Shown: positions 2,951 through 5,173 of the stretch, piece by piece
How the letters are laid out: each line of letters opens with the position of its first letter
How positions within the stretch are numbered: position 1 is the stretch's first letter
Assembly (NCBI RefSeq): GCF_030013205.1
Contig: NZ_CP122648.1
From: Escherichia coli
GTDB lineage: Bacteria > Pseudomonadota > Gammaproteobacteria > Enterobacterales > Enterobacteriaceae
DNA length: 64,000 bases
Reading direction: 5' to 3' (one strand)
Notes under the pieces: model-generated
What the model was told of the DNA's origin: nothing
Databases searched by the model: none
What the model saw: only the letters and a program-made list of their open reading frames with translations
Position numbers and translations under genes: made by a program

Positions 2951-4240
2951 ATGACGCGCCGTGCTATCGGGGTGAGTGAAAGACCGCCACTTTTACAGAC
3001 AATCCCGCTTAGTTTGCAACATTTGTTCGCCATGTTTGGTGCAACCGTCCTGGTGCCCGTCTTATTTCATATTAACCCGGCGACTGTACTGTTATTTAAC
3101 GGTATAGGAACACTGCTGTATCTCTTCATCTGTAAAGGGAAAATTCCGGCTTATCTTGGTTCCAGCTTTGCCTTTATTTCACCGGTATTGTTACTGTTGC
3201 CGTTAGGGTATGAAGTCGCGCTGGGCGGCTTTATTATGTGCGGCGTGCTGTTCTGCCTGGTTTCTTTTATCGTGAAGAAAGCGGGGACCGGCTGGCTGGA
3301 CGTGCTGTTTCCACCTGCGGCAATGGGCGCAATCGTTGCCGTCATCGGTCTGGAGCTGGCGGGCGTAGCTGCCGGTATGGCGGGTTTACTCCCGGCTGAA
3401 GGGCAAACGCCAGACTCCAAAACCATCATCATCTCCATTACCACCCTGGCGGTTACGGTTTTAGGTTCCGTGCTGTTTCGTGGTTTCCTGGCAATTATCC
3501 CGATTTTAATTGGCGTGCTGGTGGGCTACGCGCTCTCTTTCGCAATGGGAATTGTCGATACCACGCCGATTATTAATGCTCACTGGTTTGCGCTGCCAAC
3601 TCTCTATACGCCGCGCTTCGAGTGGTTTGCCATTCTGACTATTCTACCAGCGGCGTTAGTGGTTATTGCCGAACACGTAGGGCACCTGGTGGTAACGGCT
3701 AATATCGTCAAAAAAGATCTGCTGCGCGATCCAGGTCTGCACCGTTCGATGTTTGCTAACGGCTTGTCGACCGTGATCTCCGGCTTCTTTGGCTCCACGC
3801 CAAATACCACCTACGGGGAAAACATTGGCGTGATGGCGATCACCCGTGTTTACAGTACCTGGGTTATCGGCGGGGCGGCGATTTTCGCTATCCTGCTTTC
3901 CTGCGTCGGTAAACTGGCTGCTGCTATCCAGATGATCCCATTGCCGGTGATGGGCGGCGTTTCGCTGCTGCTTTATGGTGTCATCGGTGCTTCCGGTATT
4001 CGTGTTTTGATCGAATCGAAAGTGGATTACAACAAAGCACAGAACCTGATCCTGACTTCCGTGATTTTGATCATCGGTGTCAGTGGCGCGAAGGTAAACA
4101 TCGGCGCGGCGGAGCTGAAAGGTATGGCGCTGGCGACCATCGTCGGTATCGGCTTAAGTTTGATCTTCAAACTGATTAGTGTGCTGCGCCCTGAAGAAGT
4201 GGTGCTGGACGCAGAAGACGCGGATATAACAGACAAATAA
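2951..4240 (+). CDS. uraA: uracil:proton symporter (NCS2 family)
   Basis: 429 aa starting [21 protein letters not shown]; multi-TM; RBS at 2937..2944. Confidence 0.95.
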
Positions 4241-4334
4241 TGTACCGACCGGGCAGTGTTGCTGCCCGGTTCAAACATCATGGGATTCTGTGGTAAACTT
4301 CTCGCGATTTTGTGAAATCCTGGTTGAGGTATCT

Positions 4335-5036
4335 CTGAACACACCGGCACAGCTCTCTTTGCCACTTTATCTTCCTGACGACGAAACCTTTGCAAGTTTC
4401 TGGCCGGGGGATAACTCCTCTTTACTGGCCGCGCTGCAAAACGTGCTGCGTCAGGAACATAGCGGTTACATCTATCTCTGGGCACGCGAAGGCGCGGGGC
4501 GCAGCCATCTGCTGCACGCGGCTTGCGCGGAATTGTCGCAGCGTGGCGATGCGGTGGGCTATGTCCCGCTGGATAAACGCACCTGGTTTGTTCCGGAAGT
4601 GCTCGACGGTATGGAGCATTTGTCGCTGGTCTGTATCGACAACATTGAGTGTATTGCAGGCGATGAGTTGTGGGAGATGGCGATTTTCGATCTCTACAAT
4701 CGAATTCTGGAATCGGGCAAAACACGATTGTTGATCACCGGCGATCGTCCACCGCGGCAGTTGAATCTTGGACTACCGGATCTCGCGTCGCGTCTCGACT
4801 GGGGGCAGATCTACAAATTGCAGCCACTTTCTGATGAAGATAAGTTGCAGGCGCTACAGTTACGCGCGCGTTTGCGTGGTTTTGAACTGCCGGAAGATGT
4901 GGGGCGTTTCTTGCTGAAGCGGCTCGACAGAGAGATGCGCACGTTATTTATGACGTTGGATCAGTTGGATCGTGCGTCGATTACCGCGCAACGTAAGCTG
5001 ACCATTCCGTTTGTGAAAGAAATTCTGAAGTTGTAG
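4335..5036 (+). CDS. hda: DnaA-inactivating AAA+ protein Hda
   Basis: 233 aa reading frame beginning at CTG 4335 ([19 protein letters not shown]...); ORF track offers a 248 aa GTG-initiated version at 4290. Confidence 0.85.
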
Positions 5037-5050
5037 ATAAGGTGTTTATT

Positions 5051-5145
5051 GTCGGATGCGGCGCGAACGCCTTATCCGAACTACGCGAAGTTAATCCATA
5101 GTATTCGTAGGCCGGATAAGACGCGGCAAGCGTCGCATCCGGCAA
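5051..5145. repeat. pair of REP (repetitive extragenic palindrome) units in inverted orientation (BIME-like)
   Basis: gtcggatgcggcgcgaacgccttatccgaac ... cgtaggccggataagacgcggcaagcgtcgcatccggca; canonical REP core GCCGGATAAG / CTTATCCG. Confidence 0.8.
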
Positions 5146-5173
5146 TGTGCTTCAACTAGCGATGGACCACTTC

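Follow-up and report, generated by a model that had tools for sequence, protein, structure and literature searches.

The infC gene, which encodes IF3, starts with AUU, and this codon initiates translation weakly, is discriminated against by IF3 and sets the level of the protein. The hda gene, with a CTG start, resembles infC in the use of a non-canonical start codon and in weak initiation. However, the infC codon serves as the sensor in an autoregulatory loop, and hda is not known to have such a loop. The product, Hda, acts with the DNA-loaded beta clamp to convert active ATP-DnaA into ADP-DnaA, which restricts the firing of chromosome replication to once in each cell cycle. An excess of Hda is harmful, and so is a shortage.

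A second related case is yfjD of E. coli K-12, the second chromosomal gene whose CTG start was confirmed by start-codon mutagenesis (EcoGene 3.0). Like hda, yfjD was earlier mis-annotated with a canonical start, but its protein is unrelated to Hda, and the error had put the start at a downstream TTG in yfjD and at an upstream GTG in hda. Hda orthologues are also found outside Enterobacterales, for example in Shewanella amazonensis (PDB 3BOS), and these belong to the same family and carry the clamp motif within the first ~14 residues.

The CTG start of hda is already known and has been settled since 2008. An earlier note, made from the sequence alone, had proposed that hda starts at a CTG rather than at a GTG 15 codons upstream, and had named published start mapping as a check. 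Such a report exists: EcoGene 3.0 gives the CTG start of hda and cites Su'etsugu et al. (2008), which, as described there, provides direct protein-level or start-codon evidence. EcoGene 3.0 was the only relevant paper that surfaced in our searches for literature on a CUG/CTG start of hda. [quoted passage not shown] Our additions to this knowledge are minor, namely an account of the spurious GTG in terms of the promoter and the transcription start site (TSS), the breadth over which the CTG and its Shine-Dalgarno sequence are conserved, which covers at least 82 Enterobacterales species, and the probable over-length of several annotations of 235-241 aa in other genera.

Results

The hda locus and its product

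The window, that is, the whole stretch of 64,000 nucleotides of E. coli DNA that was analysed (contig NZ_CP122648.1), contains the upp-uraA-hda region, with arsC (yfgD) and bepA next to it on the opposite strand (Table 1). Of 5,426 complete E. coli genomes, a single one lacks the locus. The source is a non-K-12 E. coli, and positions 4150-5100 are 100% identical to strain K_EC180. Positions 4230-4400 are base-for-base those of K-12 MG1655, and a window position x is converted to MG1655 numbering as 2623111 - x. The comparison with K-12 across the gene covers 951 nt and shows only 7 mismatches; the start, the protein and the neighbouring genes are the same, and no relevant difference from K-12 hda (b2496, NP_416991.2, UniProt numbering 1-233) was found.

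The identity of the product is clear. It scored 476.6 bits against the NCBIfam equivalog model NF005982 (cut-off 268) and 281.4 against TIGR03420 (cut-off 194.8), and it is 100% identical to residues 21-253 of chain E in PDB 5X06, which is E. coli Hda. Both hallmarks of the family are present: the AAA+ domain, homologous to DnaA domain III, with the Hda lid (by the 5X06 identity, and with PF00308 and PF22688 carried by close relatives), and a clamp motif of the form QL[SP]LPL near the N-terminus, at residues 6-11 of the 233-aa form.

Two observations concern the flanks of the gene. For uraA, the mechanical list of open reading frames starts at TTG 2909 and RefSeq starts at 2951, which is an ordinary extension by the ORF caller. 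Between hda and arsC/yfgD, positions 5044-5173 hold a REP-type palindromic cluster in which inverted repeats were found. At a permissive threshold, Rfam gave naRNA4 (REP-derived) at 34.5 and 28.5 bits, below the gathering score of 59.5, and downstream of hda it returned only such sub-threshold REP-like matches in addition to a chance match to 5.8S.

Table 1 Features of the uraA-hda region, in window positions.
Feature	Position	Strand	Basis
uraA (uracil permease), gene upstream of hda	2951..4240	+	RefSeq annotation transferred; ORF
upp-uraA terminator hairpin (CCGGGCAG...CTGCCCGG)	4247..4270	+	Fold -22.2 kcal/mol, z = -3.5; stem conserved across genera
Weak -35-like hexamer TTCAAA (inferred), overlapping terminator 3' arm	4270..4275	+	Sequence; TTC at least 95% conserved in 83-sequence alignment
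Extended -10 element TGTGG + TAAACT	4289..4299	+	By eye, TGnTAnnnT in all 82 loci, whatever the reading frame
hda mRNA transcription start, a G	4306	+	SMRT-Cappable-seq, MG1655 2618805 converted via sequence identity
hda 5' untranslated leader, 29 nt, without GTG 4290	4306..4334	+	TSS mapping
Shine-Dalgarno GAGGT, 5 nt before CTG	4326..4330	+	GAGG at least 95% conserved in 83-sequence alignment
CTG initiation codon of hda	4335..4337	+	RefSeq CDS start; literature; CTG in 82/82 loci
hda coding sequence, DnaA inactivator Hda	4335..5036	+	233 codons + TAG; NF005982 match; 5X06 identity
Beta-clamp-binding motif QLSLPL, Hda residues 6-11	4350..4367	+	Translation; numbering in PMC5397184

Candidate start codons

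GTG 4290-4292 and CTG 4335-4337 share one frame and lie 45 nt, or 15 codons, apart. The open reading frame from the GTG runs over 4290..5036 and encodes 248 aa, and that from the CTG encodes 233 aa, both closing with TAG at 5034-5036. RefSeq, in the PGAP-annotated strains as well as in the curated K-12 record NP_416991.2, gives hda as 702 nt and 233 aa with the start at window 4335. The nearest in-frame stop upstream of the CTG is TAA 4227-4229, and from there to 4335 the GTG is the sole in-frame ATG, GTG or TTG. Thus, the statement of the earlier note that GTG 4290 is the only upstream in-frame alternative holds for canonical codons, but it leaves out the near-cognate codons ATC 4317 and CTG 4320, which are also in frame and have no Shine-Dalgarno sequence. 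CTG 4335, in contrast, is preceded by a Shine-Dalgarno sequence at a functional distance, as expected of a genuine CUG start.

Conservation of the CTG codon across species

We compared hda and its flanking DNA in 82 loci, of which 79 are from Enterobacteriaceae species and three are from Yersinia, Erwinia and Proteus. In every one of these Enterobacterales loci (82/82), the codon aligned with 4335 is CTG. There are 33 columns of hda that are leucine in all 79 Enterobacteriaceae species; codon 1 alone is written with a single codon (CTG in 79/79 species), and each of the other 32 uses 3-6 synonymous codons. Overall, only 3 of the 166 invariant degenerate columns of hda are mono-codon. As codon 1 is always CTG while the other leucine columns vary, its nucleotides are under selection beyond the coding of leucine, which is a second property of a genuine CUG start.

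The surroundings of the codon are similarly constant. GAGG stands before the CTG with a 5-nt spacer in 81 of the 82 loci and with a 6-nt spacer in the remaining one. In 46 loci, an in-frame stop is located 5-34 codons upstream with no ATG, GTG or TTG between the stop and the CTG. The first canonical codon downstream of the CTG is mostly TTG at codon 9, and starting there would delete the clamp motif. Together with the TSS at 4306, which excludes GTG 4290 (see below), this leaves the mRNA with no usable canonical in-frame start that keeps the conserved N-terminus. Among the 5,426 E. coli records, 5,398 share one sequence over 4301-4370, and no exact match to ATG, GTG or TTG variants of this 70-nt start context was found among the 5,426 genomes. 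One record, NZ_CP102488.1 (E. coli O15:H18 ST69), begins at the C of the hda CTG (query 35-70 = record 1-36); evidently, this chromosome was rotated by the depositor to start there.

The 15 residues encoded upstream of the CTG behave differently. They had been described as poorly conserved, and indeed the GTG is in frame and open at -15/-16 in only 11 of the 79 Enterobacteriaceae loci, or in 12 sequences if the window itself is counted, since 1-nt indels shift the frame in the others. The extension fails even inside the genus, as the GTG is not in frame and open in a second Escherichia locus (L004). Moreover, the distance from the -10 element to the CTG ranges from 33 to 39 nt among species, and a length that varies by non-multiples of 3 indicates that this stretch is non-coding.

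The position of the clamp motif leads to the same start. Among 50%-identity representatives of the family, used as distant Hda proteins, the motif was found in 125, and in 120 of these its Q is located at residue 2-14, with a mode of 4. The Q at residue 6 of the 233-aa form fits this distribution, whereas residue 21 of the 248-aa form does not. In three sampled non-enterobacterial orthologue loci, the predicted starts are GTG, TTG and GTG. As these are not CTG, the CTG start looks specific to Enterobacterales, judged from three outgroup loci with gene-caller predictions; on the same small sample, weak starts may be general for hda.

Transcription of hda and the alternative starts

The spacer between uraA and hda is 94 nt long and contains hda's own promoter. 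The intergenic alignment has four conserved blocks, namely the uraA terminator hairpin, a TTC after the hairpin, TGTGnTAAACT, and the Shine-Dalgarno sequence with the CTG. A simple consensus scan of 4100-4450 for promoters and terminators, in which at least 9 of 12 matches were needed, found no site, and both elements were assigned from conservation, folding and published 5' and 3' ends. In the terminator stem, changes occur on both arms across genera with pairing kept, and SMRT-Cappable-seq places a 3' end of the upp-uraA transcript at MG1655 2618838, which is window 4273. The terminator region 4247-4273 (MG1655 2618864-2618838) was read through to strongly different extents in the two growth conditions of that study: 95 of 260 reads extend beyond the terminator in one condition and only 8 of 214 in the other, where 101 stop within 50 bp. 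The difference is a hint that transcription into hda depends on the condition.

Read-through of this kind bears on the possibility of dual initiation, in which CTG 4335 would be the main start and a minor 248-aa isoform would be made from GTG 4290 on upp-uraA-hda transcripts, in Escherichia only. Read-through is substantial in one condition, SMRT-Cappable-seq lists an upp-uraA-hda operon variant, and such transcripts do carry the GTG in frame. However, only UGGGAU stands before the GTG, which is not a convincing Shine-Dalgarno sequence, and the extension that would be made is unconserved even in the genus. Literature searches found no published evidence for a minor 248-aa isoform, and we consider dual initiation very unlikely.

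The element TG(G)TAAACT at 4291-4299 has the form of an extended -10 of sigma-70 promoters, with A at position 2 and T at position 6 of the hexamer, and the TSS lies 7 nt after the hexamer, inside the usual 6-8 nt; GTG 4290-4292 provides the "TG" part of the element. The pair TTCAAA/TAAACT matches the consensus at 8 of 12 positions, one short of the 9/12 used in the scan, as is typical where a promoter relies on its TG extension. The TSS is taken from Supplementary Data 2 of the SMRT-Cappable-seq study, where operon b2496 is listed with a TSS at 2618805 on the reverse strand, marked "same" as RegulonDB. As GTG 4290 is inside the extended -10 element and upstream of the 5' end of the hda mRNA, it belongs to the promoter and does not serve as a start codon. 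It is in frame with the CTG only through a lineage-specific 1-nt indel.

The original annotation, in which hda starts at GTG 4290 with 248 residues and the CTG simply encodes an internal leucine, has to be weighed against these data. It is favoured by the GTG being the sole canonical start in the open frame, by automated gene callers, which make the 248-aa form (P0002, with 3,510 member sequences from ENA/Logan), and by the reported activity in vitro of His-tagged long-form Hda (PMC3905854). In contrast, the GTG sits 16 nt upstream of the mapped TSS, is embedded in the conserved extended -10 element, and is out of frame with the CTG or separated from it by a stop in most genera as well as in Escherichia L004; the leader differs in length between species by steps that are not multiples of 3, and the invariance of the CTG far exceeds what synonymous codon use would give. 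Curated annotation and the literature have also rejected this start, and we regard it as extremely improbable. The least probable of all, with a practically negligible chance, is initiation at CTG 4320 or ATC 4317, which are in frame and on the hda mRNA but lack both a suitably spaced Shine-Dalgarno sequence (the spacing of the conserved GAGG fits 4335) and in-frame conservation across species.

No special structure was found in the 5' leader, which folds with z = +0.66 against shuffled sequence; thus, neither an RNA switch nor masking of the Shine-Dalgarno sequence is supported. The +1 frame of the leader contains two mini-ORFs. GTG 4312, 6 nt from the 5' end of the mRNA, opens 8 codons to TGA 4336-4338, and TTG 4324 opens 4 codons to the same TGA, which overlaps the CTG (CTGA). 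All species share CTG-AAY and therefore also the TGA, and many, though not all, have an NTG before AGG. The overlap of these mini-ORFs with the start may be coincidental.

Annotated lengths in other genomes

Databases mix Hda forms of 233, 235, 238, 241 and 248 aa. In Salmonella and Citrobacter (loci L005, L007-L009, L011-L015 and L017), a 241-aa annotation arises from an ATG that lies in frame, 8 codons before the CTG. In Yersinia, Erwinia and Proteus (L083-L085), the sequence reads GAG-GTG-CTT-CTG, and the GTG 2 codons upstream leads to a 235-aa annotation; as this GTG overlaps the Shine-Dalgarno sequence, the CTG is again the credible start. Probably, therefore, the annotations of 235-241 aa in these five genera are too long, and the database forms from 233 to 248 aa probably share one CTG start. 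A different kind of length variant is a 258-aa E. coli Hda from NCBI (protein P0001) with an internal tandem duplication of ~25 residues spanning the Box VII/arginine-finger region, which could be a natural hypomorph, a suppressor allele or an assembly artefact.

Discussion

We conclude with high confidence that translation of hda begins at CTG 4335-4337, that GTG 4290 is promoter DNA, and that the gene is transcribed from its own promoter. The preference of the earlier note for the CTG over the GTG is borne out, as the RefSeq start, the literature as given by EcoGene 3.0, the crystal numbering 1-233, the comparison across species and the TSS mapping all agree. Initiator tRNA reads the CTG as methionine, and the product is the 233-residue protein with QLSLPL at residues 6-11. 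For annotation, this has a practical consequence: the 248-aa form carries 15 spurious residues ahead of the clamp motif, and gene callers still make it in thousands of assemblies.

The earlier note had also suggested that inefficient initiation serves to keep Hda levels low, and this is plausible, with good indirect support. CUG is read poorly by initiator tRNA; in reporters, it initiates at ~1-2% of AUG, and in other constructs at 0.02-3%. Raised Hda levels delay the initiation of replication, trigger SOS and are toxic to a clamp mutant. ATG, GTG and TTG can each be reached from CTG by one mutation, and none of them was found at the hda start in the 82 species; the absence of these stronger one-step codons suggests that stronger initiation has been selected against. 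By pairing a strong Shine-Dalgarno sequence with a start codon that is very weak, the gene most likely holds Hda synthesis at a low and fixed rate.

A further possibility is that the CTG is kept by selection as a regulatory sensor. Since IF3 discriminates against non-canonical starts, Hda synthesis would follow the level of IF3 or translational capacity, and it would thereby be coupled to growth rate. The invariance of the CTG in 82 species, with no other weak codon in its place either, together with the invariant strong Shine-Dalgarno sequence, is compatible with such a sensor, but we consider it unlikely, although less so than any of the alternative starts. If it were true, the inactivation of DnaA would be tied to cell physiology across Enterobacterales.
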